Virus record (IMG/VR): IMGVR_UViG_3300042904_000419
Span: 326-64,325 of that record
Direction: 5' to 3' (one strand)
From: a virus
Taxonomy: Duplodnaviria; Caudoviricetes
Length of the DNA stretch: 64,000 nt
This document shows, in pieces, positions 36,696-58,731 of the stretch (its first letter is position 1; each line of letters opens with the position of its first letter). A program made the translations under genes and the position numbers. The notes beneath the pieces were generated by a model, which was given only the letters and a program-made list of their open reading frames with translations, did not search any database and had not been told where the DNA came from.

Positions 36696-36817
36696 AGGAG
36701 AGAGGCCTGAGTCGAACAGGCTGCCCCGCGCCGCCGAAGCGGAAGCGTTACTCGGGGTGTCTAGCGGCCGTTGAAGTGATCGCTGGCTTGTGGGTCACCG
36801 TCCCCACCGCTCTCTCC
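36696..36817 (-). ncRNA. tRNA-Sec (selC)-like RNA with UCA loop and enlarged anticodon/variable arms
   Basis: 8-bp acceptor GGAGAGAG/CTCTCTCC; D arm GTGGG-GA-CGGT-GA-CCCAC; CTTCAAC loop; long variable hairpin with TTCG loop; T arm GCCTG-TTCGACT-CAGGC. Confidence 0.7.
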
Positions 36818-36868
36818 GTGGTCCCGGATCTACGCGCACCGGGCGATAGCGGGAGCGGTTACTCCTCT

Positions 36869-37378
36869 TCAGGCTCCTCCGGCGGCCCGGCCGCCCACAT
36901 CAACAGCAGCACCCACAGCGCCCAGAACAGCGTCCGCATGCCTACCTCCGTAGAGCCACAGGCCGAGCGAGAGCACCCCGCCGGACAGCAGCGTGAGCAG
37001 CGCCAGGAGGCTCTGCTCCGTGAACCACAGCCCGCCCACCATGAGCGAGAGCGCCACCGCGCAGACGCCGCCCAGCCACAGCCGGAAGCGCGCGTACCGC
37101 TCCGCCTGCGCGACCTCCTGCTGCCGGACTTCCAGCGCCGCCCAGGAGGCCAGCAGTCGGGCCTGGTCGCGCCGGAGCGCTTCCTCGCGGGTATCCAGGG
37201 CTCCGGCCCGCACGTCCAGTTCCTGCAGGTCCGCCCGGCAGGCAGCGGCGCTCATCACGTCCGCCGCCCACTGGTCGAGGCGAGCGGTGCGGGTGTTCAG
37301 CTCCGCCTCGCGCCGGTCGAGGTCCTGAGCCCGGACGCGTAGGGCGCGCTCGGTTAGGGTGGGGAGGGGCTCGTTCAC
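36869..37378 (-). CDS. coiled-coil membrane protein
   Basis: Heptad N-half, hydrophobic C-half. Confidence 0.65.
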   Translation of the reverse strand: MNEPLPTLTERALRVRAQDLDRREAELNTRTARLDQWAADVMSAAACRADLQELDVRAGALDTREEALRRDQARLLASWAALEVRQQEVAQAERYARFRLWLGGVCAVALSLMVGGLWFTEQSLLALLTLLSGGVLSLGLWLYGGRHADAVLGAVGAAVDVGGRAAGGA

Positions 37379-37737
37379 TGGCGGTCCTCCACAGCCTGCC
37401 AGCGAGCGGCGAACGCCCCGGCCTGGGTCAGCGTGTCCCGGATGGCCGGGTAGTCCGGCGTCGGCTCGGCGAGCTGCACCAGGGCGTCTCGGACCGCGTC
37501 ATACAGCCACGGGAGCGCCGGTTCCCCGAGCGGATCGGCCAGCAGCACCAGCGGCTGCAACTGGTCCCGGAGCGTGGCGAGGATCCGCACGGCGTCCACG
37601 CGGCGACGTGGGGCGGAGAAGCCGGAGACGACGATCTGCGCCAGCCGGAGCCGGATCCGCGTGTGCCGCGGCGTGAGCGGGTGGGCGAGGTTGCCGTCGC
37701 GCTGGGGGCAGAGGGCCGGGCGGGGAGCCGTGTTCAT
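37375..37737 (-). CDS. hypothetical protein
   Basis: GGAGG SD, overlap chain. Confidence 0.6.
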   Translation of the reverse strand: MNTAPRPALCPQRDGNLAHPLTPRHTRIRLRLAQIVVSGFSAPRRRVDAVRILATLRDQLQPLVLLADPLGEPALPWLYDAVRDALVQLAEPTPDYPAIRDTLTQAGAFAARWQAVEDRQ

Positions 37738-38226
37738 CTACGCGGCCTCCGCCAGCACGTCGCCGGCATCGCTGTATTCGCAGAAGCAGCAGCCGTTCGG
37801 GCGGTGTGTCGCCACCCCGCAGTCGCACACGTACTCCGCGCCCCAGTCGGCGGTTTCGGGATCGAGGCGCACGCGGGCTTCCCACCAGGCCGGATCGTTA
37901 TGGGCGAGCACCCGCTCCACCCAGGCCACGGTCTGCGCGAAGTGCCGGGTAGCCATCCGCTCGGCCTGGTAAGCGCCGTACTTCTTGCCGTCCAGCATGT
38001 CCTGGGCGACCCGGCCGGCGCGGAGCTTCTGCGCCTGGAAGAACCGGCGACGGATGGTGTTCGCGGGCTCCGAGAGCCGCGGGTAGTCGGCAAGGGAAGG
38101 GAAGCGCGCGAAGGGCACGGTGGCGCTGCCGGCCGGCCCATCCGCCCAGATGATCTGTGAAAGTGGGCGCTGTAGGGGCGATCCCTCGGTAGGTGCTTGT
38201 CGTGGGGGTCGGGTTTGCGTTACCAT
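37738..38226 (-). CDS. hypothetical protein with C-terminal Cys cluster
   Basis: CDCG.....CCFC; start uncertain. Confidence 0.6.
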   Translation of the reverse strand: MVTQTRPPRQAPTEGSPLQRPLSQIIWADGPAGSATVPFARFPSLADYPRLSEPANTIRRRFFQAQKLRAGRVAQDMLDGKKYGAYQAERMATRHFAQTVAWVERVLAHNDPAWWEARVRLDPETADWGAEYVCDCGVATHRPNGCCFCEYSDAGDVLAEAA

Positions 38227-38316
38227 GTGCGTGTTCCTGAACGGCTCGGTGCAATGGGTGTCAGCCCGCACCGGGCCGTTTTGCGTGTACCGGCCGGCTG
38301 ATCCCGGCCGAAGTCG

Positions 38317-38550
38317 TTAAGCGGCGGCCTGGTCGGACGCCGTGCCCAGGTGCGCTTGCTGCCGCAGCCATTGGCGCGGGATGCGCTTCTGCTTCCCGAC
38401 CGCCACCGCGGCGATGGAGCCGCGCTCGATCCCGGTGCGGACGGCGCGCTCGCCGGTGTTCAGGATCTGCGCGGCCTGGACCACGGACAGGAAGACCGGC
38501 CAGGTGGCGGGATCTTCGGGGTTGAAGGCGGGGGCGCTCGGAGTGTCCAT
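38317..38550 (-). CDS. xis: excisionase-like HTH protein
   Basis: LSVVQAAQIL...VR..I..G.I.A..VG...RIPR. Confidence 0.8.
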   Translation of the reverse strand: MDTPSAPAFNPEDPATWPVFLSVVQAAQILNTGERAVRTGIERGSIAAVAVGKQKRIPRQWLRQQAHLGTASDQAAA

Positions 38551-38759
38551 CAGGCGGCGACCTCCTCGCGGTCGATCACGCCGGCGGCCCGGAACAGGGC
38601 CTTCCACTTCGCGAGGGTCGTAGCTGACACCCCCAGGAATGCCGCCTGCGCCTCGCGGGTCTCGTACTCGCGAACGGCCTGCGCCACGATCTCCTCGATC
38701 GGCTTCCCGTGGTGGCGCTCCAGCATCCGCATGTAAGTGCTCTTCTCGCTCGCTTGCAT
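38550..38759 (-). CDS. Cro-like HTH protein
   Basis: AAFLGVSATTLAKW; divergent from the repressor. Confidence 0.7.
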   Translation of the reverse strand: MQASEKSTYMRMLERHHGKPIEEIVAQAVREYETREAQAAFLGVSATTLAKWKALFRAAGVIDREEVAA

Positions 38760-40075: not shown

Positions 40076-41215
40076 ATGGCCTCGGGACACGTGCGGAAGC
40101 GGACCTCGACCTGGGCCTACGTGCTGGAGCTGCCGAAGGGGCTGGACGGGAAGCGCCGGCAGCAGTGGGTGAGCGGCTTCAAGACGAAGAAGGCAGCGCA
40201 GGCGGCGCTCAACCAGGCCCTGGCGGACCTGGAGAGCGGCGGCTGGTCGGAAGCATCCAAACTCACCGTCGCGGAGTATCTGGCGAAGTGGCTGGCGATC
40301 GTGGCGCCGGGGGTGAAGCCGGCCACCCTTCACGCCTACCGGCGCGAGTGCAGCACCCTGAGCGTCGTGTTCGGGGAGCTCCCCCTCGCGCGGCTCACTA
40401 CCCTCCACCTGCGCGAGTGGTACCCGAAGGCCCTGGCGGCCGGCGTCTCCCACGGGAAGCTCGCCTACACGCAAACGATCCTCTCCATGGCCCTGAAGGC
40501 GGCGGTGCAGATGGACCTGGTGCGGAAGAACGTGGCGTCCGCCGCGCCTCCGCCGAAGCGCCCGCTGTCCGACGAGCCGGAGCCGCCGCCGGCGCTGGCG
40601 CAGGAGGAGGTCCTGCGGATGCTGGCGGCGCTCCCGGAATGGATGCGGATCCTCACCATTGTCACGGTGGCCACCGGTCTTCGCCGCGGGGAAGTGCTGG
40701 CGCTCCGCTGGTCGGACGTGGACCTGGAGCACGGGATGCTGCGCACCCGGCAGAACCTGGTGCCGCTCCCGAATGGGGGGCTGGCGTTCTCCTCGCTCAA
40801 GACGCAGAAGTCCCGCCGGGAAGTGAGCCTCAGCCCGAAGCTGGTAGCGCTCCTGCGTGAGCACCGCGCGGCGCAGTGCCAGGTGCGGGCCCTGCTCGGT
40901 CCGGACTACCAGGAGCATTACGACCTGGTGTTCCCCCGTTCGGACGGCTCGCCGCGGAACCCTAACGTGGTCACCGACACCTGGAGTAACATCCGCCGGA
41001 AGCTCGACCTCCCCTACACCTTCCACGATCTCCGCCACACGCAGGCGACGCTGCTCATGGAGGCCGGGGTCCCGGATAAGGTCGTCAGCGCCCGCCTCGG
41101 GCACGCGAAGACGAAGACCACGCAGGACCTGTACTCCCACGTCCGCCTGGTCTCCCAGAACCAGGCGGCGGCGGCCGTCGAGACCTGGCTGGAAGGGCTG
41201 GACGGGGCGGGTTAA
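40076..41215 (+). CDS. int: tyrosine integrase
   Basis: TGLRRGE, FHDLRH, RLGH, DLYSH; N-terminal arm-binding GFKTKK.A. Confidence 0.95.
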   Translation: MASGHVRKRTSTWAYVLELPKGLDGKRRQQWVSGFKTKKAAQAALNQALADLESGGWSEASKLTVAEYLAKWLAIVAPGVKPATLHAYRRECSTLSVVFGELPLARLTTLHLREWYPKALAAGVSHGKLAYTQTILSMALKAAVQMDLVRKNVASAAPPPKRPLSDEPEPPPALAQEEVLRMLAALPEWMRILTIVTVATGLRRGEVLALRWSDVDLEHGMLRTRQNLVPLPNGGLAFSSLKTQKSRREVSLSPKLVALLREHRAAQCQVRALLGPDYQEHYDLVFPRSDGSPRNPNVVTDTWSNIRRKLDLPYTFHDLRHTQATLLMEAGVPDKVVSARLGHAKTKTTQDLYSHVRLVSQNQAAAAVETWLEGLDGAG

Positions 41216-42763: not shown

Positions 42764-44752
42764 GTGCTGCCTGTGAGCACCGGTGTCTCTCCGACGATCT
42801 ACGCCGTCGATCTCTTCTGCGGCGCCGGTGGCTTCAGCTCCGGCCTCGCGTTGGCCGCCGCGGAGCTGGGCCTCGACCTCGACCTGCTGGCGATCAACCA
42901 CTGGCAGGTGGCGGTGGAGACTCACAGCAAGAACCACCCGGCCGCGCGGCACCTCTGCCAATCGATCGAGACCGTTAACCCCCGGGAAGCGGTGCCCGGC
43001 GGCAAACTGAACCTGCTCCTCGCCTCCCCGGAATGCACGCACTTCAGCTCGGCCCGGGGCGGGAAGCCGATGAGCGAGCAGCGCCGCGCCACGCCCTGGT
43101 GTATCCTGCGCTGGTTGGACGCCCTCGACGTCGAGTCGGTGGTAATCGAGAACGTCCCGGAGTTCGTGACCTGGGGGCCGCTCCACCCGGCGGACCACAA
43201 GGACGAGAAGAAGCGGGACCGACCGGTCGAGAAAGACAAGGGCAAGTACTTCCGCAACTTCGTCCGGAACCTCCAGAGCCTCGGCTACCGGGTCGACTGG
43301 CGGGTCCTCAACGCGGCGGATTACGGCGCGGCCACCACCCGGAAACGGCTGTTCCTGCTGGCCCGTAAGACGCGGCGACCGATCCGCTGGCCGGAGCCGA
43401 CGCACGGGAAGGCGACGGGGTCTGTGCAAGGCGACCTCGGCCTGAGTGCCGTGCGTCTCCCCTGGCGAGCGGCGCGGGAGATCATCGACTGGGAGCTCAA
43501 GGGCGAGTCGATCTATGAGCGCAAGCGACCCCTCGCGCCGAACACCCTGGCGCGGATCATGGCCGGGCTGGAGAAGTTCAGCGGGCTCCCGTTCATCGTC
43601 GGCGCGGGCGGACCCACGAATGGCGGGAACCCGCAGAGTGTGGAGAGTCCGCTAGGAGCACTCCTGACGGAGAACCACCGCGCCCTCTGCGAGCCGTTCC
43701 TGGTGGTTCTCCGCAATCACGCGGACGGCCGGAGCCTGGACGAACCGGTGCCGGCGCTCGCAGCCAACGGGACTCACGTCGGGATTGCGGAGCCGTTCCT
43801 CGTGGGCTTCACCCATTCGAAGCGGGAGAACGGCTGTGTCTACTCCGCAGACTCGCCAGTACCGTGCGTTACCACGAAGGCTGAGGTGGGGATCGCCGAA
43901 CCGTTCCTCGTGAACATGAAAGGGAACTCCGATGCCGCGGACATTAACCTGCCTACCCCCACGATCACAGCAGGCGCTCCGCACCTCTACGCCGCCGAAC
44001 CCTACCTGGTCAGCGTAAACCACGGCCCAGAGGCGCGGGTCCGTGACCTCGACCGGCCGCTGCCGGCACAGACCGGGAAGGGCACCCAGGCACTCATCGA
44101 GCCGTTCCTGATCGGCCAGCAGTCCGGAGCCGTGGCGCGAGGGGTGAGTGGGCCCGGCCCGACCGTGGCCGGTGCCGGGGCGATCAGCCTGGTCGAGCCC
44201 TTCATCCTACCGCATCAGCACGGTAGCAGCGGCCTGGACAACGTGCGGAGCATCGAGGTGCCGCTGCCGTCGGTCACCGGCACCTCGTCGGACATGTTCC
44301 TGGCGGATCCATACCTCGTGGACTTCTACGGCGAGCGGGATGGCCAGGCGCCGCGCTGCCGCAGTGTGGACGACCCCCTGACGACAGTGGCGGGTAGCCG
44401 AACCCACGGACTTGCCCAGCCGTTCCTGCTCCGGTACTCCACGAAGGACCGGCAATCCCAGAGCGTGCATGAGCCGCTGGGCTGCGTGGATACCACCGAT
44501 CGGTACGCGCTCGTGCATCCGGAGTTGGTGCGGAGCGGGCAGGTGCAGGGGGAGGTGGTCGGCTACCTGGATATCCGGTTCCGAATGCTGCAGCCGCATG
44601 AGCTCGCCGCGGCGATGAGCTTCCCGGAAACCTACACCTTTACCGGCAACCGGGAACAGGTGGTTAAGCAGATCGGAAACGCCGTGGACGTGAGCCAGGC
44701 CAAGGCGCTCTGCGGCGCGGTGCTCAAGAGCTTTCTGGGGGTTACCCCATGA
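42764..44752 (+). CDS. DNA C5-cytosine methyltransferase with repeated variable region
   Basis: DLFCGAGG, SPECT, ENV, R.RLF, KQIGNAV; about nine EPF(L)/PYL-anchored repeats. Confidence 0.95.
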   Translation: MLPVSTGVSPTIYAVDLFCGAGGFSSGLALAAAELGLDLDLLAINHWQVAVETHSKNHPAARHLCQSIETVNPREAVPGGKLNLLLASPECTHFSSARGGKPMSEQRRATPWCILRWLDALDVESVVIENVPEFVTWGPLHPADHKDEKKRDRPVEKDKGKYFRNFVRNLQSLGYRVDWRVLNAADYGAATTRKRLFLLARKTRRPIRWPEPTHGKATGSVQGDLGLSAVRLPWRAAREIIDWELKGESIYERKRPLAPNTLARIMAGLEKFSGLPFIVGAGGPTNGGNPQSVESPLGALLTENHRALCEPFLVVLRNHADGRSLDEPVPALAANGTHVGIAEPFLVGFTHSKRENGCVYSADSPVPCVTTKAEVGIAEPFLVNMKGNSDAADINLPTPTITAGAPHLYAAEPYLVSVNHGPEARVRDLDRPLPAQTGKGTQALIEPFLIGQQSGAVARGVSGPGPTVAGAGAISLVEPFILPHQHGSSGLDNVRSIEVPLPSVTGTSSDMFLADPYLVDFYGERDGQAPRCRSVDDPLTTVAGSRTHGLAQPFLLRYSTKDRQSQSVHEPLGCVDTTDRYALVHPELVRSGQVQGEVVGYLDIRFRMLQPHELAAAMSFPETYTFTGNREQVVKQIGNAVDVSQAKALCGAVLKSFLGVTP

Positions 44753-45006
44753 GCCACCGCCCCGCCTATCGCCAGCCCGCCCCGCCCCGCGGCCTGATCG
44801 GTCCCACGGGCGGCCCGGGACACCAGGGGTCCGACGACGCGCCCACGGACGCCGAGGCGGCGGTGATCCTGCGCGACCGCCCCGGGACTCGTGCGCTGAT
44901 CCGCGACCTGCTGACCCGAGCAGACGTCGCCAGCGACCCCCGGCGCGCGCGGGGACTGGTGCAGGAGGCGGAGGCTTGGGCGCGGACGCTGGAGGTGCGG
45001 AAGTGA
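44749..45006 (+). CDS. hypothetical protein
   Basis: ATGA overlap chain. Confidence 0.55.
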   Translation: MSHRPAYRQPAPPRGLIGPTGGPGHQGSDDAPTDAEAAVILRDRPGTRALIRDLLTRADVASDPRRARGLVQEAEAWARTLEVRK

Positions 45007-45296
45007 GCCAGCTTTGGCGTGATACGGCCGGAGTGTTTCCGCTCTGGCAGCGGGCGTGCTTCCTGCTTGCGGTGGACGCGATGCGCCGTCGCCGCTGGCG
45101 TCTCCTGTCCTGGCTGGGTTGGCGGCGCGAGGAGCTGGAGTTGATCTCACCAACTGGTGAGCCGCAAGGAGTGAAGACGGTCTGGCTGTTGGCCGTGCGG
45201 AACGGCGAGGGGCTGCTGATCGAGGTCCTTTCCTCGAACGGGCGGCGCACCTGGTATGAGCTGAGCCGCAGTGACCTGAGCGAGGCCACCCCATGA
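45003..45296 (+). CDS. hypothetical protein
   Basis: GTGA overlap, GGAGG SD. Confidence 0.55.
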   Translation: MSQLWRDTAGVFPLWQRACFLLAVDAMRRRRWRLLSWLGWRREELELISPTGEPQGVKTVWLLAVRNGEGLLIEVLSSNGRRTWYELSRSDLSEATP

Positions 45297-45571
45297 GCTG
45301 CTACGTGGACGAGCTCCGCGACTACCGGCAGCGCCACGACCTCCCGCCCCGGATGCGCCGGGAGTGGTGCCACCTGACCGCGGACACCGAAGACGAGCTG
45401 CACGCGTTCGCGGCGCGATTGGGAATGCGCCGGGAGTGGTTTCAGGATCACCCCCGGCCGGAGCGGCGGCACTACGATCTGACGCGGGAGCGGCGAGAGC
45501 GGGCGGTGCGCGCGGGGGCTTTATCCGTTCCGGCGCGTGAACGGCTGAAGGCGGCGAGGGCTAACCCATGA
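45293..45571 (+). CDS. DUF4031 protein
   Basis: YVD, WCHL.ADT..ELHAFA.RLG..R.WFQ, HYDLT..RR..A...GA. Confidence 0.9.
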   Translation: MSCYVDELRDYRQRHDLPPRMRREWCHLTADTEDELHAFAARLGMRREWFQDHPRPERRHYDLTRERRERAVRAGALSVPARERLKAARANP

Positions 45572-45798: not shown

Positions 45799-45858
45799 CG
45801 GATGAGGATTTCTGCGTTAAATAGGCTCAAATACCCGGTGAGGGAGCGACTTACCAGC

Positions 45859-46335: not shown

Positions 46336-46339
46336 GACG

Positions 46340-46900
46340 AGCAGGGTTAGTATCCGGCCCGGATCCGGGAGAGGCCGTGAGGCCACATCCGCGATGGCTC
46401 GGTGGTTCTTCGCCTCGATAACACGATTTGCCCGGCAAACGGGCGACAGGGTTCGGGAAACGCGGCCTCGAAAACCGCGCGCTCCTTAGTGCCGCAAGGC
46501 AGCCGCCTCGAAAACGGTAGAGCACCCGAGCAGCATACCCTGCCAGTCACCGGGGATCGGCTCCCGGCCCTACCCGTGCGGGGGCTGCACGGGACCTGAC
46601 GCGGTGGAGCAGTTGGTAGCTCGTCGGCCTCATAAGCCGAAGGTCGGCGGTTCGAGTCCGTCCTGCGTCCCTCCGGTGCGGAACCGGTGTCACGAGCGTG
46701 AGCCATTGACTGGGGCCGGGGAAGCGTTCTCCCCGGCCTCTTCTTTCGTCCGCACCTCGGCGTCACGCTTTACGCAGTCGGGGAGCGATCCCCACTCCGC
46801 GCCCGGACGGGTTCCGGGTAACAGCGGTTTCGCTGTGCCAGTGCTTACTTCAAATCCATGATCCTGGCCCGGAGCCCCCGCTCCGGGCCTTTCTTCATCC
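46340..46900 (+). ncRNA. candidate large structured RNA surrounding tRNA-Met
   Basis: ~560 nt with no credible CDS; nested stems, GCAA tetraloop, two identical CCTCGAAAA loops, closing terminator at 46867-46896. Confidence 0.5.
46598..46670 (+). tRNA. tRNA-Met(CAT), no encoded CCA
   Basis: GACGCGG/CTGCGTC acceptor; GAGC/GCTC D stem; TCGGC-CTCATAA-GCCGA; GGCGG-TTCGAGT-CCGTC. Confidence 0.88.
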
Positions 46901-47873: not shown

Positions 47874-47877
47874 GCCC

Positions 47878-49353: not shown

Positions 49354-49355
49354 GG

Positions 49356-49484: not shown

Positions 49485-49530
49485 CTTTCCGGCCGGGAGA
49501 GCATCGGTCGGCATGGATAGAGAGGATGAG

Positions 49531-50055: not shown

Positions 50056-50062
50056 CCCCAAC

Positions 50063-50129
50063 CGCGAAGTAGCTCAACGGTAGAGCGCCGGGCTTCCCGG
50101 TGACCGCGGTTCAACTCCGCGCTTCGCAA
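50063..50129 (+). ncRNA. tRNA-like RNA with anticodon loop reduced to 3 nt
   Basis: C-GCGAAG/CTTCGC-A; GCTC-AACGGTA-GAGC; CCGGG-CTT-CCCGG; CGCGG-TTCAACT-CCGCG. Confidence 0.8.
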
Positions 50130-50205
50130 TGCAGATTTCCTACCAGAACGCGGCGGATTAGTAGCTGCTCGCCCTGTTAACCCTGGCGGTTAACACAGTT
50201 AACGC

Positions 50206-50940
50206 ATGGAACCAGGAACGGTTAACCCCCGCGGCGCCCGCTTCACCGACCAGGAGCTGCGCGAAGACCTCGGCAGCGGGCTCAAGCCGGCGGACATCGC
50301 CCGAAAGTACCAGGTCAGCCCCGCAGCGGTCTCCAAGCGGATCACGAAGCTCAACCTGGCCACCACCACGGCGGCTGTCGCCCCCGAGGAATCCCGCCGG
50401 TTCGTCAGCGGTCAGATCAACGCCATCGAGCAGTTGGAGCGCGGCCTGGGCCGGGTGAACCTGCTGATGGATGCCTGCGACGCGTGGCTGCGGAGTGCAG
50501 ACGATCCGGAGCGCTACGACGTGGGGGCCCGCGCCGAAGAGGTAGACGTCACGTACGAGGTAGAGGTCCGCACCGCGAACGGCTCCCTGGTTACCCAGAA
50601 GCGCACCAAGCGGCTCACAGAGCTGATGGGCTGCCTGGAAGGCGAGGACGAAGACGGCGCCCGGTTCTGCGGCTGGAAGCACGGCGAGACCAAGCGCGCC
50701 GACCCCCGCGAGTTGATCCTCCGCACCGTAGCCGAAGGCCGGCAGACGGTGGCAGCCGCTACGGAGCTCGCGAAGCTCCTGGCAGACATGCGGGCCATGC
50801 AGGAGTGGCGCGAGGTGGTGCTGGGAGCGATCGGGAGAGCGGCGCCGGATGTTCGCGACGAAATCATCGCCGAGGTTCGATCCTCTCTCGTTCTCCGCGG
50901 GCTTCTTGACGGACCCGCGGGCAGCGGTCAGGTGCACTGA
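50206..50940 (+). CDS. terS: terminase small subunit
   Basis: N-terminal HTH (ADIARKYQVSPAAVSKR); overlaps terL. Confidence 0.7.
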   Translation: MEPGTVNPRGARFTDQELREDLGSGLKPADIARKYQVSPAAVSKRITKLNLATTTAAVAPEESRRFVSGQINAIEQLERGLGRVNLLMDACDAWLRSADDPERYDVGARAEEVDVTYEVEVRTANGSLVTQKRTKRLTELMGCLEGEDEDGARFCGWKHGETKRADPRELILRTVAEGRQTVAAATELAKLLADMRAMQEWREVVLGAIGRAAPDVRDEIIAEVRSSLVLRGLLDGPAGSGQVH

Positions 50941-52495
50941 GCAGAAGCTTACCCTGGCGGACCTGCGGATCCGCACCAAGGACAAGCGCATCATCGGGTT
51001 CGCGCCGAACCCGGTGCAGGTGCTCTACCTGGACCAGCTATGTCCGCGCTGGCGGGCCGGCGACTACAAGCTGCAGGCGACGAAGGAGATCATCCTCAAA
51101 GCCCGCCAGTTCGGGTTCTCGACCCTGATCCTGGGCCTTTTCTTCCTGGACACGATCAGCACGCCGAACACGAGCACGGTAGTCATTGCCCATGACGGCG
51201 AGAGCACCGAGCGCCTGTTCCGGATGGTGCATCGCTTCTACCTGAGCCTGCCGGAAACGACCCGACCCCGCACCAAGTTTGCCAACCGCCGCGAATATCT
51301 GTGGCCGGATCTGGACTCCTCGTTCTTCGTGGGGACCGCCGGCGCCAAGGACTTCGGGCGCTCCTCCACGATCAACAACGTGCACATGTCCGAGGTCGGC
51401 ATGTGGAAGAACGGCGAGGAGTTGGTGAGCGGTCTCCTGCAGGCGGTGCCGGCCGGTGGCAACGTCTTCGCAGAGAGTACGGCAAAAGGGCTGGGGAACT
51501 GGTTCCACTCCGAGTACACCGCGGCCGAACGCGGAGATTCCGTCTTCGTTCCGCGTTTCTTCGGCTGGCATCAACACGAGGAGTACCGGAGCGCTCCGGG
51601 GCCGGGTTTCACGCCCACGCCCGACGAAGAGAAGCTAATCGCCGCGTACAGGGTAACGCCGGAGCAGTTGGCCTGGCGTCGTACGAAGATTCTAGAACTC
51701 CGGGACCTGTTCCCCCAGGAATACCCGGCGAACGCCCGCGAGGCGTTCCTGACTTCCGGCAATCCCTACTTCGATCGAGCCAAGCTCAGCGAGCTGTCCG
51801 ACGCACTACACGGCCCGGAGCACCGGCCGCTCAAGCCGGAGATCCCCGTCGCCTATCCACTCCTGCGCCGGGAACCGAAGCTCACGATCTGGAAAGCGCC
51901 AGCACCTGGTCGCCGGTACGTGATCGGGGCGGACACGGCCGAAGGGCTGCCGGACAAGGGCAAAGACGCGGACTTCGACAGCGCAGACGTGTTCGACGCG
52001 GAGACCTGGGAGCAGGTGGCGCGCCTGCATGGCCAGTGGGACACGCACCAGTACGGGCTGCTGCTGGCGGAGCTCGGCACCTGGTATAACCTGGCGCTCC
52101 TCGGCATCGAGCGGAACAACCACGGGCACGCGGTGATCAACGCCGCGATGCATACGGCCGGCTACCCGGTACAGAAGCCGGGGCAGGGCTCCGGGCTCTA
52201 CTGTCACGAGGAGTTCGACGAGAAGAAGACGGTTACGGCACGCCGGCCGGGCTGGCCAACCACGGCGAAGACCAAGTTCTTCGCGCTCGACGGACTGGCC
52301 ACCAGCATCGACGAGGACGCGCTAAAGCTCCACTCCCCGCAGACCGTCTCTGAACTCCTTACCTTCGTGAAGCTTCCGGGCGGCAAGGCGGGCGGCGAAG
52401 GCAAGTGTCACGACGACGCGGTGATGAGCTGTGCGATTGCGGATGCGCTGTTGAAGATGCGGTTGAGCGCGCCACGGAAAATTTGGGCCAAATGA
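50849..52495 (+). CDS. terL: terminase large subunit (start uncertain)
   Basis: ILKARQFGFST Walker A, HMSE, EST..G, IGADTAEG, IERNN.G, HDD.VMS. Confidence 0.93.
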   Translation: MFATKSSPRFDPLSFSAGFLTDPRAAVRCTEQKLTLADLRIRTKDKRIIGFAPNPVQVLYLDQLCPRWRAGDYKLQATKEIILKARQFGFSTLILGLFFLDTISTPNTSTVVIAHDGESTERLFRMVHRFYLSLPETTRPRTKFANRREYLWPDLDSSFFVGTAGAKDFGRSSTINNVHMSEVGMWKNGEELVSGLLQAVPAGGNVFAESTAKGLGNWFHSEYTAAERGDSVFVPRFFGWHQHEEYRSAPGPGFTPTPDEEKLIAAYRVTPEQLAWRRTKILELRDLFPQEYPANAREAFLTSGNPYFDRAKLSELSDALHGPEHRPLKPEIPVAYPLLRREPKLTIWKAPAPGRRYVIGADTAEGLPDKGKDADFDSADVFDAETWEQVARLHGQWDTHQYGLLLAELGTWYNLALLGIERNNHGHAVINAAMHTAGYPVQKPGQGSGLYCHEEFDEKKTVTARRPGWPTTAKTKFFALDGLATSIDEDALKLHSPQTVSELLTFVKLPGGKAGGEGKCHDDAVMSCAIADALLKMRLSAPRKIWAK

Positions 52496-53991
52496 GAGCA
52501 ATCGACGGCGCGCGCGCCTACCTCGCCGCCCGGGGTAATGGGTGGTCGCATGGGGAGGCGCGGGAGACCGCGGAACTGGTGCGGGCCTCCGGCGGCCTGG
52601 TCGCGGTCAAATCCCTGCTCCACAGCGCCGGCGGCTTCTCCGGGAACAATACCGGCTGGCCGAACTCCTTTCGCAAGCTGACGGATAGCTGGCCGGAGCG
52701 CACGGGGCAAAGCGCCTCCGGCGTCTCCCTGGATCAGTTCTGGAGCTGCTCCACCGTCCAGGCGAACCTGAGCTTTATCCAACGGACGTTCCCCGAGGCG
52801 CGCCCCCGGGTGCTGGATGGCGAGGGCGAGGACGCGGAGGAGATCCTGGGGCACCCGCTCACGCGGCTCCTCAACCGGCCGAACCCGTTCTACACGGCAC
52901 ATCGGCTGTGGCAGGTGACGCTGGCCGACTGGTGGGTCACAGGCCGGGGCAATGCCTACTGGCGGATCGTGCGCGGCGGCTATCGGGAACCGGTGGAGCT
53001 CTGGCACCTGCCGGCGGCAGAGGTAGAGCCGGACTGGCCCCGGGATGGTAGCGCGTTCATCTCGCACTACCGCCGCACGGTGAACGGCAAGACGGAGGAG
53101 CTGGACCCGCGTGACGTAGTGCACTTCCGCTTTGGCCAGGACCCACACAACAGCCGCAAAGGCTGGTCGCCGCTCCTGGCGGGGGCGCTGGAGGTGGCGA
53201 ACCTTAACGAGGGCGGGCGGTACCGGGTCGGCCTCCTGGAGCGCCACGGGGTTCCGTCCTACGCCCTGACGCCGCAGAACGAGCAGGTCGCCCAGGGGAT
53301 GGACGAGCCCACCATCGAGCTGCTCCAGCGGCTCTGGCAGGAGAAGCACACCGGCGCGATGCGCGGCGGGCTGTTCGTGCCCAACTTCGCCGCGAAGCTG
53401 GACCGCGTGGGCTACTCCCCGCAGGAGCTCGACATCCGCCAGATGCTCGGCTGGGACGCCGACATGGTGTGCGCCCTCTTCGGGCTCAGCTCCATGGTGC
53501 TGGGCTTGCCCTCCGGCGAGGAGCATCGCACCTTCGCGAACATGGCCGAGGCGCGGGAGAGCGCGTTCGAGAGCAACATCGTCCCCACCCAGGCGCTCAT
53601 GGCGGCGGACCTGGAACTGCAACTCCTTCCGGAGTTCGACTCGGACGAGTCCCATCACGTCGGTTGGGATTACAGCCGGGTGCGGGTGCTGCAGGACGAT
53701 CAGGACAAGCTGTATACGCGGCTGGATCAGGCGGTGACTACCGGCTGGTTGGCGCCGAACGAGGCGCGGAAGAAGGTGAGCCTCCCGGCGCTCAAGGGCG
53801 GCGACGAGCCAAAGCCGCTGTCCGCCGAGGTGCGCGAAGACTACCAGCAAGGGATCATCACCCGCAACGAGGCCCGGAAGCGCCGCGGGCTGCCACCGGT
53901 GAAGGAAGAGGCTGCGGCGCCTGCGGGTGAGCTAGAGGCGGGAACGGAACCCGCGGTGGGCGCAGCAGGTGGCGCACCCGGGGCACGCTGA
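52492..53991 (+). CDS. portal protein (HK97-like)
   Basis: HPL..LL.RPNP, GNAYW, VVHFR, G.SPL, PNEAR. Confidence 0.92.
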   Translation: MRAIDGARAYLAARGNGWSHGEARETAELVRASGGLVAVKSLLHSAGGFSGNNTGWPNSFRKLTDSWPERTGQSASGVSLDQFWSCSTVQANLSFIQRTFPEARPRVLDGEGEDAEEILGHPLTRLLNRPNPFYTAHRLWQVTLADWWVTGRGNAYWRIVRGGYREPVELWHLPAAEVEPDWPRDGSAFISHYRRTVNGKTEELDPRDVVHFRFGQDPHNSRKGWSPLLAGALEVANLNEGGRYRVGLLERHGVPSYALTPQNEQVAQGMDEPTIELLQRLWQEKHTGAMRGGLFVPNFAAKLDRVGYSPQELDIRQMLGWDADMVCALFGLSSMVLGLPSGEEHRTFANMAEARESAFESNIVPTQALMAADLELQLLPEFDSDESHHVGWDYSRVRVLQDDQDKLYTRLDQAVTTGWLAPNEARKKVSLPALKGGDEPKPLSAEVREDYQQGIITRNEARKRRGLPPVKEEAAAPAGELEAGTEPAVGAAGGAPGAR

Positions 53992-54776
53992 TGGCGAACG
54001 GTGGGTTCATCGACGGCGGGGGCGGCGGGCTGATCGATGGGGGCGGAGGCGGGTTCCGCGAAGAGGACCATCCACGCGGGCCGGGCGGGAAGTTCGCCAG
54101 CAAGGGCGGGAGTGCAGGTGGCAGTCACGGCGGATTGGGTTTCCCGGCGCGAGAGGCTCGGCTCGGCTCGGCGGGCGGTAACGAGAAGACGCCCGAGATC
54201 CACGAGTTCGAGCGGCTGACCCGAGAGCTCGGCATCCCGGAAGTAGATTTCGGCACCTCCGTGCATGTGGCTCGTTGGGCGTATCGCGGGCTGAAAGAGG
54301 GCCACAACGCCGGTCGGGAGATGCCGTCCGCCGTGCGCGTCGACCCGCATCTGGAAGCGGTCGCCCAAGTGGATCCGAAGACATTGGCGCTCACGATCAA
54401 CCCGCGGCAACCAGATTTTCAATCACAAGGCGCGGCGAAGGTAGAGGCTCGCGCCGCTGGCCGGCGCAAGCTGACCTCCACGCGGCACGAGCACCATTTC
54501 ATTCGGCACGAACTAACCCATGTTGCTCATGCGCGCGCCTTGGGGGCTGCGCAGGTGATTGCGTACAACGATCCGAAGTGGTCAGACGCGGTGGGAGGTG
54601 CCGAGGCGCTCTCTCTTGCCGAGACGGTAAGTACCCGCGCCACCTACTCTCCCGCGGAGTTCGTGGCCGAGGTCTACGCCGGGCACTTAGGGGAAGTCAA
54701 CTACCCAGAGCCGGTGCTGCAGCTTTACCAACGCTATGGTGGGCCAAAGTTACCCGCCCGTAACTCGCAAGAGTGA
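53991..54776 (+). CDS. HPR-motif head-module protein with zincin (HExxH) domain
   Basis: F.EEDHPRG.GGKF..KGG; IRHELTH; Y...EFVAE; occupies the usual MuF position. Confidence 0.7.
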   Translation: MANGGFIDGGGGGLIDGGGGGFREEDHPRGPGGKFASKGGSAGGSHGGLGFPAREARLGSAGGNEKTPEIHEFERLTRELGIPEVDFGTSVHVARWAYRGLKEGHNAGREMPSAVRVDPHLEAVAQVDPKTLALTINPRQPDFQSQGAAKVEARAAGRRKLTSTRHEHHFIRHELTHVAHARALGAAQVIAYNDPKWSDAVGGAEALSLAETVSTRATYSPAEFVAEVYAGHLGEVNYPEPVLQLYQRYGGPKLPARNSQE

Positions 54777-54807
54777 TCTGCGTTATAATACGCAGGGGTG
54801 AAGAGTA

Positions 54808-55077
54808 ATGGTGCAGATTGGGGTCAAGTTAGGCGGTCCTCCCGAGGCCAAACAGTGTATTAAGTGCGCCCACTTCAACGACGATAAGCCGGGCGCCTAC
54901 GTCTGCGCCGCGTACCCGGACGGCATTCCGACGGACATCCTGTACGACGAGGTCGACCATCGCCAGCCCTACGCCGGGGATCACGGCATTCAGTTTGAGC
55001 CGTGGGAAGCAGGCGCCGAGTCGCCGTTCGCATACTGGGATCGGCTAGCAGCCGAAGAGGCGAAAGCCCCGGCCTAA
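54808..55077 (+). CDS. small Cys-rich protein (C..C.H...C.AYPDGIP..I......H..P..GD.GI.FE)
   Basis: Motif pattern seen in genes following MuF-like genes; own TATAAT at 54784-54789. Confidence 0.75.
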
Positions 55078-55195
55078 CCCCTAGCCTTCAGCCGGCCGCA
55101 GGCGTTTACCCAGGAGCCCCGGCCACCGGGACGCATGACGCGGTCGGCCACGGTCGGCTGAATACCTCCCCCTAACCACATACTTCGCCCTTTAC

Positions 55196-55222
55196 AGGGG
55201 CTCGGCATTATGCCGAGCCCCT
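55196..55222 (+). terminator. strong inverted repeat / probable terminator
   Basis: AGGGGCTCGGCAT-T-ATGCCGAGCCCCT. Confidence 0.55.
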
Positions 55223-55254
55223 TCCTGCGTTTCTGGGCGAGCGAGGCAGAGACC

Positions 55255-56328
55255 ATGGACAAGCTGATCAACTTCGGGGGCGCGGTCAAGGCGCTGGGCG
55301 AGGGTGTGGTGGAGGGCTATCTGGTCCTCTTCGGCACGCCGGACGAGACCGACGCCAGCGGGCTCCGGGACTTCTTCACGCCGGAGACCGACTTCGGGCT
55401 GGCCGACGGGATGAAGTCGACCATCTGGTACCGGCACGCGCTGGAGCCGTCGCTGGATCGCCCCATCGGTGAGGGGGCGCTGAAGGCGGACGACGTTGGC
55501 GTGTTCATCACCGGCCAGCTCAACCTCCGCGACCGCTACGTGAAGGCCGTCTACGACCAGATGGCCTGCAAAGGCAAGTTGGGCTGGTCCTCCGGATCCG
55601 TGAGCCACCTGGTGCGCCGCGAACCCCAGGAGAACGGCGCCCACAAGATCACCCGTTGGCACCTTGGCCTCGATGCCTCGCTCACCCCGGATCCGGCCGA
55701 GCCCCGCACCCAGGTCGCCGTAAAGAGTCTCACGGACCTGCCGGCGGTGGCGCCCCTGGAAGAGCTGCTCCCCGAGATCAAAGCGCAGTTCCTGGGCGAA
55801 TACGTGGAGCGCGAGATGACCCTCGCCTCCCTCCGCACGCTCAACGACGCGCTGATGTACTCCGTGGTGGCACGCTGCCTCTACGATGACCAGCTCACCC
55901 CGGAGCAGAAGCAGGCGCACCTCGCCGGCGCCTTCGCTGAGTTCAGCGCCCTCGCGCTCGAAACACTTTCCCCGCTCCTCGCGGGGACCGATAGCGGCGC
56001 CCTGAAGGCGCTGCGCACCCTGTGGGGCCCGGAACGACCGGAGTCCCTCGTAGAGCACGCGGCAAAGGTGGTGTCCGCCAGCGCCGAGTTCGCCAACCGC
56101 CTGGAGACCAGGCTGGAAGTGCGACAGACCGACGGCCGCACGCTGTCCGCGGCGCAGCGGGACGCCCTCAAGGCAGTGGTCGAGGAGTTCAACGACCTCG
56201 ACGCCGTGAAGGCGCACCTGCTCCGCACCCTGGCGGCGGCGGAAGGCAAGCCCACCCCCACGCGCGAGGACACCGAGCGGCTACGGACCGCCTTCCTCCG
56301 CCTGACTTCGCCCGTAGGAGCGAACTGA
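55255..56328 (+). CDS. prohead protease with helical C-terminal extension
   Basis: VEGYLVLF, D.F...T, H, GWSSGS, ASLTP.PAEP; upstream of MCP. Confidence 0.85.
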   Translation: MDKLINFGGAVKALGEGVVEGYLVLFGTPDETDASGLRDFFTPETDFGLADGMKSTIWYRHALEPSLDRPIGEGALKADDVGVFITGQLNLRDRYVKAVYDQMACKGKLGWSSGSVSHLVRREPQENGAHKITRWHLGLDASLTPDPAEPRTQVAVKSLTDLPAVAPLEELLPEIKAQFLGEYVEREMTLASLRTLNDALMYSVVARCLYDDQLTPEQKQAHLAGAFAEFSALALETLSPLLAGTDSGALKALRTLWGPERPESLVEHAAKVVSASAEFANRLETRLEVRQTDGRTLSAAQRDALKAVVEEFNDLDAVKAHLLRTLAAAEGKPTPTREDTERLRTAFLRLTSPVGAN

Positions 56329-56329
56329 G

Positions 56330-57625
56330 ATGAAGCTTCCCGAGTACCGCACGGCTATCAAGAGCAAGTGCGAGGAAGTCCAGGCCATTTTCCGCAAGGC
56401 GGACCTGGAGCAGAACGGCATCTGCAGCACCGAGCAGCAGGAGCAGATCAAGAGCCTGAACAAGCAGATCGAGGAGCTGGAGCAGAGCGCTCAGTCCCTC
56501 GCGCAGCAGGACGAGCTGAAGGCGCTGAACGGCCGGCGCCTGGATGCCTTCGGTCGCCCCGGCAACCCGCAGCAGTTCGACGGCACGCCGGCGGGAGCTG
56601 GGCGCCGCGGCAGTATCGGCGAGCGGTTCCTGGCGAGTGATGCCTTCAAGGCCTGGTTCGACAGCGTGGCGCCGCACGGCCAGGTGCCGGAGCGGATGCG
56701 GATCACCAGCCCCTCCGTGCCGTTCAACGGCGAGGGCGTCAAGTCGCTCCTCACCGGCCTGACGACCTGGAGCGCCCGCACCGACACCTCGGCGTCTGCC
56801 CTGGTGCCGATCGACCAGCGCGGGCTGCTCGACATGGGCTACTGGCAGCGGCCCCTCCGCATCTCGGACCTCGTGAGCCACGGCACGACCACTGGCGACG
56901 TGATCGAGTACGTCCGGATCACCGGGGTCACCAACAACGCCGCTCCGGTGGCGGAAGCCACCGCGACCGGCGGGAGCTCGGGCGTGAAGCCGGAGAGCGC
57001 CATGGCGTTCGAGGTGATCCAGGACCGGGTCAAGACGATTGCCACCTGGCTCCCGGCGACCCGGCGCGCCCTAGGTGACGCGGGCCAGCTCCGCAGCCTC
57101 ATCGACGCGTTCCTCCGGTATGCGCTCCTGGAGGAGCTGGAGGACCAGATGGTCTCTGGCTCCGGCGCGGGCGAGAACCTGACCGGCGTCCTCAATGTCA
57201 GCGGGATCCTCACCCAGTCGTGGTCCGCGGATCTCCTGACCACGGCGCGCAAAGCCATCACGAACATCACCCTGAACGGCCGGGTAACGCCGAACGCCTG
57301 GGTGCTGCACCCCAACGACTGGGAAGACTTCGACCTGCTCACGGACAACGAGAACCGCTATTTCTTCGGCGGCCCGCAGAGCGTCGGCACCCCGCGCCTC
57401 TGGGGGGTGCCGGTGATCGTGTCCGAGGCTGTAACCGAGGGCTTCGGGGTCCTCGCGGACTGGTCGAAGGCCATGCTGTGGGACCGGGAGCAGACGAACA
57501 TCCTGGTCAGCGACAGCCACGCCGACTTCTTCATCCGCAACCTGATCGCCATCCTGGGCGAGCTGCGGGCGGCGTTCGGCGTCATCCGCCCCAAGGCGTT
57601 CCTCAAGGCGGACTGGACCGAGTAG
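56330..57625 (+). CDS. major capsid protein (HK97 fold)
   Basis: Coiled-coil delta domain, KPES, VKTIA.W, G.G....L.G, LWG.PV, F.RN...IL.E.R. Confidence 0.95.
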   Translation: MKLPEYRTAIKSKCEEVQAIFRKADLEQNGICSTEQQEQIKSLNKQIEELEQSAQSLAQQDELKALNGRRLDAFGRPGNPQQFDGTPAGAGRRGSIGERFLASDAFKAWFDSVAPHGQVPERMRITSPSVPFNGEGVKSLLTGLTTWSARTDTSASALVPIDQRGLLDMGYWQRPLRISDLVSHGTTTGDVIEYVRITGVTNNAAPVAEATATGGSSGVKPESAMAFEVIQDRVKTIATWLPATRRALGDAGQLRSLIDAFLRYALLEELEDQMVSGSGAGENLTGVLNVSGILTQSWSADLLTTARKAITNITLNGRVTPNAWVLHPNDWEDFDLLTDNENRYFFGGPQSVGTPRLWGVPVIVSEAVTEGFGVLADWSKAMLWDREQTNILVSDSHADFFIRNLIAILGELRAAFGVIRPKAFLKADWTE

Positions 57626-57676
57626 GCCAAGACCTGGGGCGGGGGAGTGATCCTCCGCCCCTCGGAGAGCAAGACC

Positions 57677-58174
57677 ATGGCTTATAAGGATCCTCTGGCA
57701 GCGGGAATGCGCGATACGCGCACGCTCCCCCTGTCGGCCGACGCTACCGGTCGCGCGCGGATGGCGACCAACTTCTTCAACGCGGCTACCGCGCTGGCGA
57801 AGTTCGCGGCCCAGGCGATTGCGTGGAGCCTCATCGCCCCGCGCGCCGTGGAGGCACACACCGCGGGCGACACGCTCACCACCGCCGAGTGCGGCTCGGT
57901 GCACACCAGCGTGGGGGCCTCCGGCACCATCACCCTGGCGCTGCCGCCAGCGACCGTCGGCCTGGAGTACTACTTCCGGGTGGGAGCGGCCCAGGAGCTC
58001 CGCATCGATCCGGATGGCACGGAAACCATCGCCCTCCCCTCCACGGGAGTGCAGGGCGCGGCCGGCAAGTACCTGGTCGCCGATGCAGACGGCGAAACCC
58101 TGCACCTGGCGTGCACCAAGGCCGGCCAGTGGAGCGTGTTCGGCTTCACCGGCACCTGGACCGCGCAGCCGTAG
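57677..58174 (+). CDS. putative capsid decoration/head fibre protein, paralog 1
   Basis: T.T......G......GA....T..LP.AT.G..Y.F pattern; directly after MCP. Confidence 0.65.
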   Translation: MAYKDPLAAGMRDTRTLPLSADATGRARMATNFFNAATALAKFAAQAIAWSLIAPRAVEAHTAGDTLTTAECGSVHTSVGASGTITLALPPATVGLEYYFRVGAAQELRIDPDGTETIALPSTGVQGAAGKYLVADADGETLHLACTKAGQWSVFGFTGTWTAQP

Positions 58175-58243
58175 GGCGAGCGTGGCGACTACTACCCGGC
58201 GGGGTGTGCGTGACACCCGGCCTTACCTCTTGAGGATACAACA

Positions 58244-58603
58244 GTGCCCCATACCGTCAACGGAATGGCCCCGCGGACGCGGGAAATCAAAACGGCGGAT
58301 TACACCGTCGTCGTGGACGACGTCGGCAAGACGTTCACCAACGAAGGCGCGAGCGGCGCCGTCGTCTTCGCGCTGCCGCCGGCTACGGTCGGCCAGTGGT
58401 ACCGGTTCTGCGTGAAGGCCGCGCAGGAGCTCCGCATCGACCCGAACGGCACGGAAACCATGTCCCTGCCGTCTACCGGCGTGAAGCAGGCGGCGGGCGC
58501 TTACCTCACGGCCAACGCCGACGGCGAGTGCCTGGAGATCGAGTGCGTCAAGGCGGGGGAGTGGGAGTCCCGCTACTACACCGGCACCTGGACCGCGGTC
58601 TAG
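58244..58603 (+). CDS. putative capsid decoration protein, paralog 2
   Basis: Shares ALPPATVG, AAQELRIDP.GTET..LPSTGV, TGTWTA with paralog 1. Confidence 0.65.
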   Translation: MPHTVNGMAPRTREIKTADYTVVVDDVGKTFTNEGASGAVVFALPPATVGQWYRFCVKAAQELRIDPNGTETMSLPSTGVKQAAGAYLTANADGECLEIECVKAGEWESRYYTGTWTAV

Positions 58604-58616
58604 GACCGTGCACGGC

Positions 58617-58650
58617 TGCCGCCGGGGTGGTTCGCTCCCCGGCGGCTTCT
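58617..58650 (+). terminator. terminator-like hairpin after capsid genes
   Basis: GCCGCCGGGG...CCCCGGCGGC-TTCT. Confidence 0.6.
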
Positions 58651-58731
58651 GACTGCGTAGCCCAATTGGAAGAGGCACGACGACCGAATAGGTACGCCGC
58701 ACCGGCGCAGGTTCGAATCCTGCCGCAGTCC
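58651..58731 (+). ncRNA. class II (Leu/Ser-like) tRNA-like RNA with degenerate anticodon arm
   Basis: GACTGCG/CGCAGTC; GCC-CAATTGGAAGA-GGC; variable arm GCCG-CAC-CGGC; GCAGG-TTCGAAT-CCTGC; only ACC/GGT pairs in the anticodon arm. Confidence 0.78.

Follow-up and report, generated by a model that had tools for sequence, protein, structure and literature searches.

Introduction

In mitochondrial tRNA punctuation, and in the mascRNA of the MALAT1 transcript, conserved elements with the shape of a transfer RNA (tRNA) undergo demonstrated processing, and in mascRNA the anticodon arm is reduced. Ribonuclease (RNase) P needs the acceptor/T stack of its substrate, and RNase Z acts on precursors that lack an encoded CCA. 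For phages, earlier reports tabulate tRNAs called “pseudo” by tRNAscan-SE in T4-like phages (PMC1524935), list phage M3 RNA, the precursor of the P1/P7 C4 antisense RNA and operon mRNAs as non-tRNA substrates of RNase P (PMC11143913), and propose that phage tRNAs with anticodon-loop substitutions escape the anticodon nucleases of the host (PMC10264068). Here we analyze four tRNA-shaped elements in a 64,000-nucleotide (nt) stretch of a tailed-phage genome, hereafter the window, which comprises bases 326-64325 of the 64,325-bp IMG/VR virus record IMGVR_UViG_3300042904_000419 and represents nearly the whole genome.

A sequence-only reading of this DNA had described the four elements as dispersed tRNA folds with disabled anticodon arms, placed at module boundaries, and had proposed that they form a tRNA-punctuation or tRNA-decoy system. 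This description is partly confirmed, in that the window holds two truly anticodon-disabled tRNA derivatives (hereafter E3 and E4), one normal tRNA(CAU), and one tRNA-shaped element whose status is uncertain (Element 1; coordinates of all features are given in Table 1). E3 is a predicted derivative of an actinophage-type tRNA-His that lacks exactly the anticodon and position 37, and E4 reads as a phage-type tRNA-Leu derivative with a middle ~7 nt too long. Neither is predicted to be able to pair with a codon.

E3 and E4 thereby add to a known kind, the degenerate tRNA genes of phages. As in mitochondrial punctuation or mascRNA, a tRNA shape within a long transcript would give RNase P and RNase Z a place to act and so set the ends of the RNA, but here there is no conservation and only three elements stand among ~30 genes. 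In mycobacteriophages of the cluster-L type, a tRNA-Leu(UAG) gene and a tRNA-His(GUG) gene are adjacent (features 110 and 111 of Mycobacterium phage Whirlwind), and since Leu and His genes stand side by side in cultured phages they appear to be ordinary actinophage cargo. E3 is 75.8% identical to a tRNA-His of the Whirlwind type and has the same T loop, and E4 has a Leu-type D arm; unlike the Whirlwind genes, which are adjacent and have 7-nt loops, E3 and E4 lie 8.5 kb apart, E3 without an anticodon and E4 with a rebuilt middle.

Like phage tRNA pseudogenes, E3 and E4 are recognized by a tRNA model, have no usable anticodon arm, retain a recognizable isotype and are not conserved in relatives; unlike the pseudo tRNAs of T4-like phages, they have damage confined to the anticodon arm, the variable region and, by the usual isotype rule, the discriminator, they score high (58 and 35 bits), and they are dispersed in a late operon instead of clustered (PMC1524935). 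PMC11143913 offers a precedent for RNase P cutting phage and polycistronic RNAs at tRNA-like folds, but the substrates given there are not full cloverleaves derived from tRNA genes. In the phage tRNAs of PMC10264068 the anticodon loop is also the departing part, whereas these tRNAs keep a 7-nt loop and decode. Word searches of open-access text found no description of anticodon-less phage tRNA mimics with a shown function.

Table 1. Features of the window referred to in the text (window positions).
Feature	Position	Strand	Basis or remark
Element 1, 122-nt tRNA-shaped frame, status uncertain	36696..36817	-	No covariance-model match at E<=10
Tyrosine integrase	40076..41215	+	Pfam PF00589 (2.2e-27), plus arm-binding and SAM-like domains
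Normal tRNA(CAU)	46598..46670	+	Rfam 64.8 bits; ARAGORN tRNA-Met(cat)
Intrinsic-terminator-like hairpin with T-rich tail	46712..46740	+	Consensus scan; 41 nt 3' of tRNA(CAU)
Second terminator-like hairpin	46866-46889		Consensus scan
E3, 67-nt His-type phage tRNA derivative	50063..50129	+	Rfam 58.1 bits
Open reading frame in small-terminase position, without family match	50206-50940	+	PHROGs, Pfam
Large terminase	50849-52495	+	PHROGs, Pfam
Portal	52405-53991	+	PHROGs, Pfam
Prohead protease	55210-56328	+	Pfam PF04586 / PF05065 and phrog_10, cited for the protease-capsid pair; upstream of E4
Major capsid protein	56330-57625	+	PF04586 / PF05065 and phrog_10, cited for the protease-capsid pair; upstream of E4
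G+C-rich 10-bp hairpin without T tail	58618..58646	+	Read from sequence; directly 5' of E4
E4, 81-nt Leu-type phage tRNA derivative	58651..58731	+	Rfam 35.2 bits

Results

Detection of the elements

The Rfam tRNA model RF00005 (gathering cut-off 29 bits), run on the window and on the whole record, passes three sites, which are the tRNA(CAU), E3 and E4, with the scores listed in Table 1. ARAGORN at default settings makes a single tRNA call, a tRNA-Met(CAT) at 46598-46671, and reports no transfer-messenger RNA, for which a relaxed run gives one implausible permuted call. All matches that reach the Rfam gathering score in the window are tRNA, with no mimic of the Y RNA/YrlA type among them. A canonical decoding arm, in which a 5-bp stem bears a 7-nt loop and the loop has U33 and, at position 37, a purine, is found in the tRNA(CAU) only. 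Model matches thus bear out three of the four folds of the sequence-only reading at the positions it had given and leave Element 1 without one, and its account of strand, intergenic placement, absence of an encoded CCA, TTCRA T loops and GG-containing D loops agrees with what we find throughout. Its claim that the elements do not decode stands for E3, which has a 3-nt loop, and for E4, in which no 5-bp stem closes a 7-nt loop, and falls for 46598-46670, which is the normal tRNA(CAU).

Around the four elements there is no shared word of at least 12 nt, and neither a mobile cassette nor common flanks were found. An origin as attP-type tRNA fragments is unlikely, with both cloverleaf halves present and the integrase gene 9-17 kb away.

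It is also important to consider that the anticodon indels may be contig errors and the true genes a normal tRNA-His and a normal tRNA-Leu, a concern to which a metagenomic assembly of modest depth (~11) gives some ground. The sole public run that holds the sequence (X1) is possibly the source sample and is not independent, and the listing of runs shows none of RNA; its Logan contigs span 46000-52968 and 52949-59500 at a depth of ~11, with 0 substitutions and 0 gaps. Because these contigs agree with the record letter for letter, a second assembler has arrived at the same lesions, from a run that may be the source sample, and the assembly errors that the sequence-only reading had named as a danger did not appear. 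Neither a deletion of 4 nt nor a rebuilt segment of 29 nt is, furthermore, typical of short-read errors, and the discriminators also depart from the usual rules for His and Leu, so we regard an artefact as extremely improbable. In one low-depth Logan contig 50087 is linked to 58657, one side of the joint being just 20 letters long; this was taken as the tRNA of another organism.

A His-type derivative without an anticodon

E3 aligns over the whole tRNA model with four anticodon-loop positions deleted, and its anticodon arm (50088-50100) has 13 nt, a 5-bp stem and a 3-nt loop, where 17 nt are expected. The element begins 7 nt past the stop of the open reading frame (ORF) 49513-50055, encodes no CCA, and has a fold energy with z = -2.88 and a C1xA72 mismatch. 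The discriminator of tRNA-His is usually C, and the A of E3 departs from this rule.

The assignment to tRNA-His comes from several comparisons. Among 50,697 cultured-phage records, blastn with E3 matches only Mycobacterium phage records (22 of 22), and all 12 of the matches listed lie on an annotated tRNA-His, with 75.8% identity over query bases 9-70. A pattern of the E3 D arm and anticodon stem finds five loci in GTDB, each of them a tRNA-His. When E3 is aligned with eight tRNA-His genes and the Whirlwind and Micromonospora genes, there is a single 4-nt gap, at the anticodon and position 37. The D arm combined with the T loop is less specific, occurring in 21 IMG/VR tRNAs (8 Met, 7 Ile, 3 His, and one each of Thr, Phe and Ser); all of these have normal spacing and none has the shortened spacing of E3.

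Other origins were set aside. The acceptor end (CGCG...CGCA-A), the C1 mismatch, the three G-C pairs of the anticodon stem and the TTCAA T loop resemble a Micromonospora initiator tRNA, but the D arm and variable loop differ and an actinophage tRNA-His fits better; because actinophage tRNA-His shares the T arm and part of the acceptor stem of E3, we treat the initiator likeness as a lead only. Recent capture from a host was also rejected. Within the class of the Micromonospora genome, 16 of 301 genomes matched E3 (E<=0.001), one of them over more than 34 nt, and that sole longer match is the tRNA-His of a Micromonospora tRNA array, with no near-identical tRNA among these genomes. The array itself (L105, 192-2201, on a Micromonospora chromosome) is a dense group of 14 tRNA genes that includes the tRNA-His most similar to E3; it has odd lengths, with a 69-nt tRNA-Met and a 90-nt tRNA-Asn, and resembles a tRNA array of the mobile-element or prophage type.

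A Leu-type derivative with a rebuilt middle

In E4 the 7-bp acceptor stem is perfect, the D arm is of the Leu type and contains GG, and the T arm is canonical; the element encodes no CCA, and its fold energy has z = -2.45. The Rfam alignment places 25 nt where a 17-nt anticodon arm is expected, and from position 26 to the T stem the element has 29 nt (58678-58706) as against 21-22 nt in comparable phage tRNA-Leu. In the predicted fold these 29 nt form a 3-bp stub, which closes a 5-nt loop, and a 4-bp hairpin, and no word of at least 11 nt from this middle recurs elsewhere in the window, so that a templated origin was not found there. For ARAGORN to take E4, a 5-nt “intron” must be allowed at position 33, and position 37 of the loop so formed is a pyrimidine.

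The combination of the 17-nt D arm and the T loop of E4 is shared by 16 IMG/VR tRNAs in 15 loci, all of which are tRNA-Leu of the short phage type; E4 exceeds them by 7 nt in the anticodon and variable region, and no IMG/VR sequence was found with this D arm and T loop and a lengthened middle. The discriminator of tRNA-Leu is usually A, and E4, with C, departs from this rule. E4 ends 8 nt before the ATG of the ORF 58740-59384. Both this ORF and its homologue in the relative L001, described below, start at an ATG without a Shine-Dalgarno-like sequence (58732-58742; L001 7616-7631).

A working tRNA(CAU)

The third late-strand element has a 5-bp anticodon stem, a 7-nt loop, discriminator C and no encoded CCA; it may be either a Met tRNA or a lysidine-type Ile2 tRNA, which cannot be told apart here. 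The relative L068 carries a counterpart ~4.2 kb upstream of its homologue of the ORF 50206-50940, the corresponding distance in the window being 3.6 kb. Between the two genes the loops and discriminator are identical and 21 of 21 stem pairs are kept, nine of them changed on both sides. Such paired changes with every pair retained indicate a working tRNA(CAU) gene under selection.

The two terminator-like hairpins downstream of this gene (Table 1) are pattern matches only, with three such sites in 44000-60000 against a shuffle mean of 7.3. In the 262-nt gap 5' of the gene, the 11-nt direct repeat GCCTCGAAAAC stands at 46465-46475 and 46505-46515, 40 nt apart, and the second copy continues into 11 nt that match the E3 D arm, probably by chance; as part of a local direct repeat, this match was rejected as a shared flank. 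A 36-nt Logan contig with a depth of 100.8 matches 46607-46642, from the D arm to the anticodon of the tRNA(CAU), with two differences, and this depth suggests that an abundant organism in the sample has a similar tRNA.

Comparison with related phages

Few relatives of the phage are available. Among 5.8 billion proteins, portal homologues reach 70% identity at best, and a megablast search of cultured phages with 45500-60500 found nothing. Searching IMG/VR with the portal protein returned one locus and with a portal alignment 26 loci, only one of which (L001) exceeds 38%; the same alignment led in the JGI metagenomes to the same contig as L001 and in GTDB genomes to none. The syntenic comparison accordingly consists of one relative per site, L001 for E4 and L068 for E3.

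L001 is syntenic from its homologue of the ORF 50206-50940 through the tail genes, with neighboring proteins 40-79% identical. Between its homologues of 58244-58603 and 58740-59384 there are 77 nt that hold a hairpin only, where the window has the hairpin 58618-58646 followed by E4. In L068 the homologue of the 50206-50940 protein is 73% identical and the large terminase 79%, and upstream of the former lies other sequence with no tRNA-like element. L001-L005 contain no match to the tRNA model or by ARAGORN. The relatives thus lack the disabled elements at the matching sites, and no homologue with the lesion of either E3 or E4 was found by IMG/VR patterns of D arm plus T loop with an altered middle. 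Conservation thus lends no support to the proposed punctuation or decoy system. The sequence-only reading had also looked to relatives for normal tRNAs at these loci, a sign of recent decay, and for covariation of each arm; the matching sites in L068 and L001 have no tRNA, and so no normal one, and covariation was obtained for the tRNA(CAU) alone. Where punctuation-type elements would flank most modules at conserved positions, there are three elements in the ~25-kb rightward block.

More broadly, 8 of 10 related viral records have no match to the tRNA model at E<=1, and the other two have sub-threshold matches that are more degraded. One is L068 10216-10305 (G002:C1:14155-14244; 17.5 bits), which lies in a gap between portal and protease genes with a terminator-like hairpin after it; its T arm is perfect, its acceptor stem is weak and rich in G-U pairs, and 36 nt stand where the anticodon arm would be. 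The other, L074 1501-1572 (G010:C1:54705-54776; 24.5 bits), is a degenerate tRNA-like sequence in a complete 66.6-kb distant relative; its D loop lacks GG, its T stem is bulged, and UCC occurs in its anticodon loop of 8 nt. In L016, a distant relative, a 119-nt frame at 12557-12675 combines a perfect 7-bp acceptor stem and a long middle with a canonical T arm, with no Rfam tRNA match and a strong terminator hairpin 3' of it. Over 517 kb of related loci, four ARAGORN tRNAs and two ARAGORN-negative frames were found, and since shuffles lead one to expect 1.45 frames, the two give no sign of a recurrent class among relatives.

Two further observations concern these relatives. L068 3421-3484 matches the Rfam int-alpA RNA at 36.4 bits (gathering score 35.8), and the modules are mosaic, with the large terminase 28% identical to that of L001 and 79% to that of L068, the portal 69% and 30% identical, respectively, and the 50206 protein 73-76% identical to both.

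An uncertain element in the early operon

Element 1 sits in a 184-nt gap of the leftward early operon and consists of an 8-bp acceptor-like stem, a 5-bp GG-bearing D-like arm and a T-like arm with a TTCGACT loop, with ~45 extra nt in its middle. With an 8+5 bp acceptor/T stack, a long extra arm and UCA in the loop, a tRNA-Sec was weighed, but the tRNA-Sec model RF01852 has four matches in the genome at E<=10 and all are elsewhere. There are two ways to read the element as a whole. It may be an older, more rearranged tRNA-derived RNA, or it may be an unrelated structured leader; we give even chances to its not being tRNA-derived at all, in which case the early operon would carry a tRNA-like frame by chance, within a structured leader or an intergenic RNA.

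A chance frame is consistent with the absence of an RF00005, RF01852 or other credible Rfam match at E<=10, with an unremarkable fold energy (z = -1.26), and with the behavior of ARAGORN, which calls the element only with lowered thresholds and a 38-nt “intron”, among 23 calls that are nearly all otherwise unsupported. We also devised a frame descriptor, after Element 1 had been seen, which demands a 5/5 T stem around TTCRA adjoining a 7/7 acceptor stem within 60-135 nt; in the window it finds the tRNA(CAU), E4 and Element 1. Dinucleotide shuffles of the window contain such a frame in 17 of 200 cases, in keeping with chance, but a frame with a GG-bearing D arm in only 2 of 200, which makes the frame of Element 1 unlikely to be pure chance, with the reservation that the descriptor was set after the fact. 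The TTCGACT T loop and the T stem stacked directly on the acceptor stem are likewise tRNA hallmarks that tell against chance.

Blastn found no match to Element 1 in cultured phages. No RecT locus was found, and of eight DnaB loci seven are 29-33% identical and one is 46% identical over 89 residues only; no relative that covers the early region was found in this way.

Genome and gene context

The record has direct terminal repeats, a CheckV completeness of 75% and a G+C content of ~68%. Its leftward early block (~19.8-38.6 kb) encodes DnaB, a replication initiator, RecT, a resolvase and an N6/N4 methylase. The rightward block begins at 38.8 kb with helix-turn-helix regulators, a tyrosine integrase, a C5 methylase, an endolysin-like protein and a beta-helix protein, continues with the large terminase, portal, prohead protease and major capsid protein, and leads into tail genes that reach the window end and wrap to 1-19 kb. 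Because it encodes a tyrosine integrase the phage appears to be temperate. The closest capsid proteins of cultured phages are those of Arthrobacter and Mycobacterium phages (43-46% identity), and a soil actinobacterium is a plausible host. A haloarchaeal virus with small tRNA introns was rejected, as the predicted proteins are not acidic (median isoelectric point 6.6) and GGAGG-type ribosome sites are common.

Scans of 63 ORFs against Pfam and 58 against PHROGs turned up no tRNA-repair, CCA-adding or RNase gene. The two DNA methyltransferases, of the N6/N4 type and a 662-residue C5 type, correspond to the regions 22878-24446 and 42764-44752, and a DUF5131 protein (27692-28783) and a DUF4031 protein (45293-45571) are also encoded. 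Directly 5' of the ATG of the ORF 50206-50940, GTTAAC occurs three times within 28 nt (50176-50203), with a fourth copy at ~50221 in the first codons, and the homologue in L068 has a comparable run of TTAAC repeats upstream (L068 5960-6000). These repeats could be a regulator-binding or packaging-recognition site.

Discussion

We lean slightly towards the view that E3 and E4 are young tRNA relics which are probably still cut by RNase P and RNase Z. Phages of this group would gain tRNA genes in intergenic gaps and then lose them, with the tRNA(CAU) being kept. The His-type gene would have been disabled by one 4-nt deletion that removed the anticodon and position 37, and the Leu-type gene by rearrangement of its middle, with the anticodon arm and variable region rebuilt by insertion. 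Both would be lineage-specific insertions in intergenic gaps of the rightward late operon and would be read through with it. Since both keep an intact acceptor stem, T arm and D/T elbow, the established substrate rules suggest that RNase P and RNase Z probably still excise E3 and E4 from the read-through late transcript, cleaving the polycistronic RNA at both points, 7 nt past the 49513-50055 stop codon and 8 nt ahead of the 58740-59384 start codon. Such cleavage would be a by-product of young relics and not a selected system. The excised RNAs would probably remain uncharged, because the discriminators usual for their isotypes are missing.

What argues for relics is that E3 traces to tRNA-His and E4 to tRNA-Leu, both without decoding determinants, and that the disabled elements are absent at the matching sites in L001 (E4) and L068 (E3), in contrast to the tRNA(CAU), which is kept in L068 with two-sided pair changes. 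Decay is also seen elsewhere in the group, in the 17.5-bit element L068:10216-10305 and the 24.5-bit element G010:54705-54776.

Several points weigh against recent decay as the full explanation. The recognizable lesions all fall in the anticodon arm, the variable region and, by the usual rules, the discriminator, and the acceptor, D and T pairs are intact except for C1xA72 in E3 and a 13-22 mismatch in E4 that is also present in tRNA-Leu. E4 shares every letter of its D arm and T loop with working phage tRNA-Leu, and if the differences of E4 arose one by one, this pattern suggests a constraint on the top half. The sequence-only reading had argued from such sparing that random decay would not be expected to leave the other arms whole. 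The lesion pattern lends that argument some force, but a covariance model or the eye finds only elements with intact top halves, E3 differs by a single event, and the middle of E4 could have been replaced in a single event as well. Moreover, we infer recent decay and do not observe it, as no closer relative with an intact anticodon was found; the relatives at hand are distant (40-79% protein identity) and fragmentary, so that the lineage studied here may still have a use for elements that these relatives lack. For one 64-kb genome, three tRNA-shaped elements whose middles are abnormal is also a high count, when 517 kb of related loci gave two such frames.

These points bring into consideration a selected non-decoding role, which, taking processing or stability and decoy functions together, we consider unlikely. 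In its widest form, which we hold to be a little less likely again, the lineage maintains three anticodon-less tRNA mimics, the His-type, the Leu-type and the 122-nt element of the early operon, for their acceptor/T/elbow half, and the mimics would be RNase P/Z cut sites that set the stoichiometry of late segments or sponges for host factors that bind the top half. As processing or stability signals, E3, E4 and the true tRNA would be RNase P and RNase Z cleavage sites that divide the late transcript into lysis, packaging and connector/tail segments, with the capsid-gene segment ending in the hairpin 58618-58646 and the downstream message starting 8 nt before its ATG. The intact top halves with canonical elbow nucleotides fit this proposal, as does the placement on the transcribed strand in short gaps, 7 nt after a stop for E3 and 8 nt before a start that lacks a Shine-Dalgarno-like sequence for E4. 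The hairpin directly 5' of E4 is also present in L001, and RNase P is described in PMC11143913 as cutting non-tRNA substrates that include phage RNAs and operon mRNAs. However, E4 is missing in L001 and no counterpart of E3 lies upstream of the 50206 homologue in L068, which means that the same gene junctions work without E3 and E4. There are only three elements for ~30 late genes, the proposal is without covariation support because no homologues of E3 or E4 were found, and any tRNA gene embedded in an operon would have the same effect with no need of special selection. We therefore judge this role improbable.

A role as decoy or sponge is very improbable; its targets would be tRNA-directed host factors that recognize the acceptor/T/elbow half, for example sensors, modification enzymes, or toxins that attack the acceptor stem or the 3' end of tRNA. 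Without an anticodon loop E3 and E4 would be immune to anticodon nucleases, the loop is specifically what is missing or rebuilt in an otherwise tRNA-like RNA, and changes in the anticodon loop have been proposed as a means by which phage tRNAs counter defences that cleave tRNA (PMC10264068). The published cases nevertheless retain decoding, which E3 and E4 do not, and a decoy for an anticodon nuclease would need the very loop that the nuclease recognizes. There is, in addition, no conservation in relatives and, in the Pfam and PHROGs scans, no partner gene nearby, and placement in the late operon fits an early counter-defence poorly.

If E3 and E4 are relics, the finding shows how phage tRNA genes die, with one indel in the anticodon loop leaving behind a high-scoring “tRNA”. 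Annotation pipelines may miscall such relics, since ARAGORN at default settings skips E3 and E4 and Rfam passes both, and the relics still put structures of the RNase P/Z type inside late operons. Should the elements instead prove to be maintained, phages would for the first time offer an example of RNAs that derive from tRNA, do not decode, and serve in processing or as decoys, and the elements would be a bacterial-virus counterpart of mascRNA-type or mitochondrial punctuation elements.

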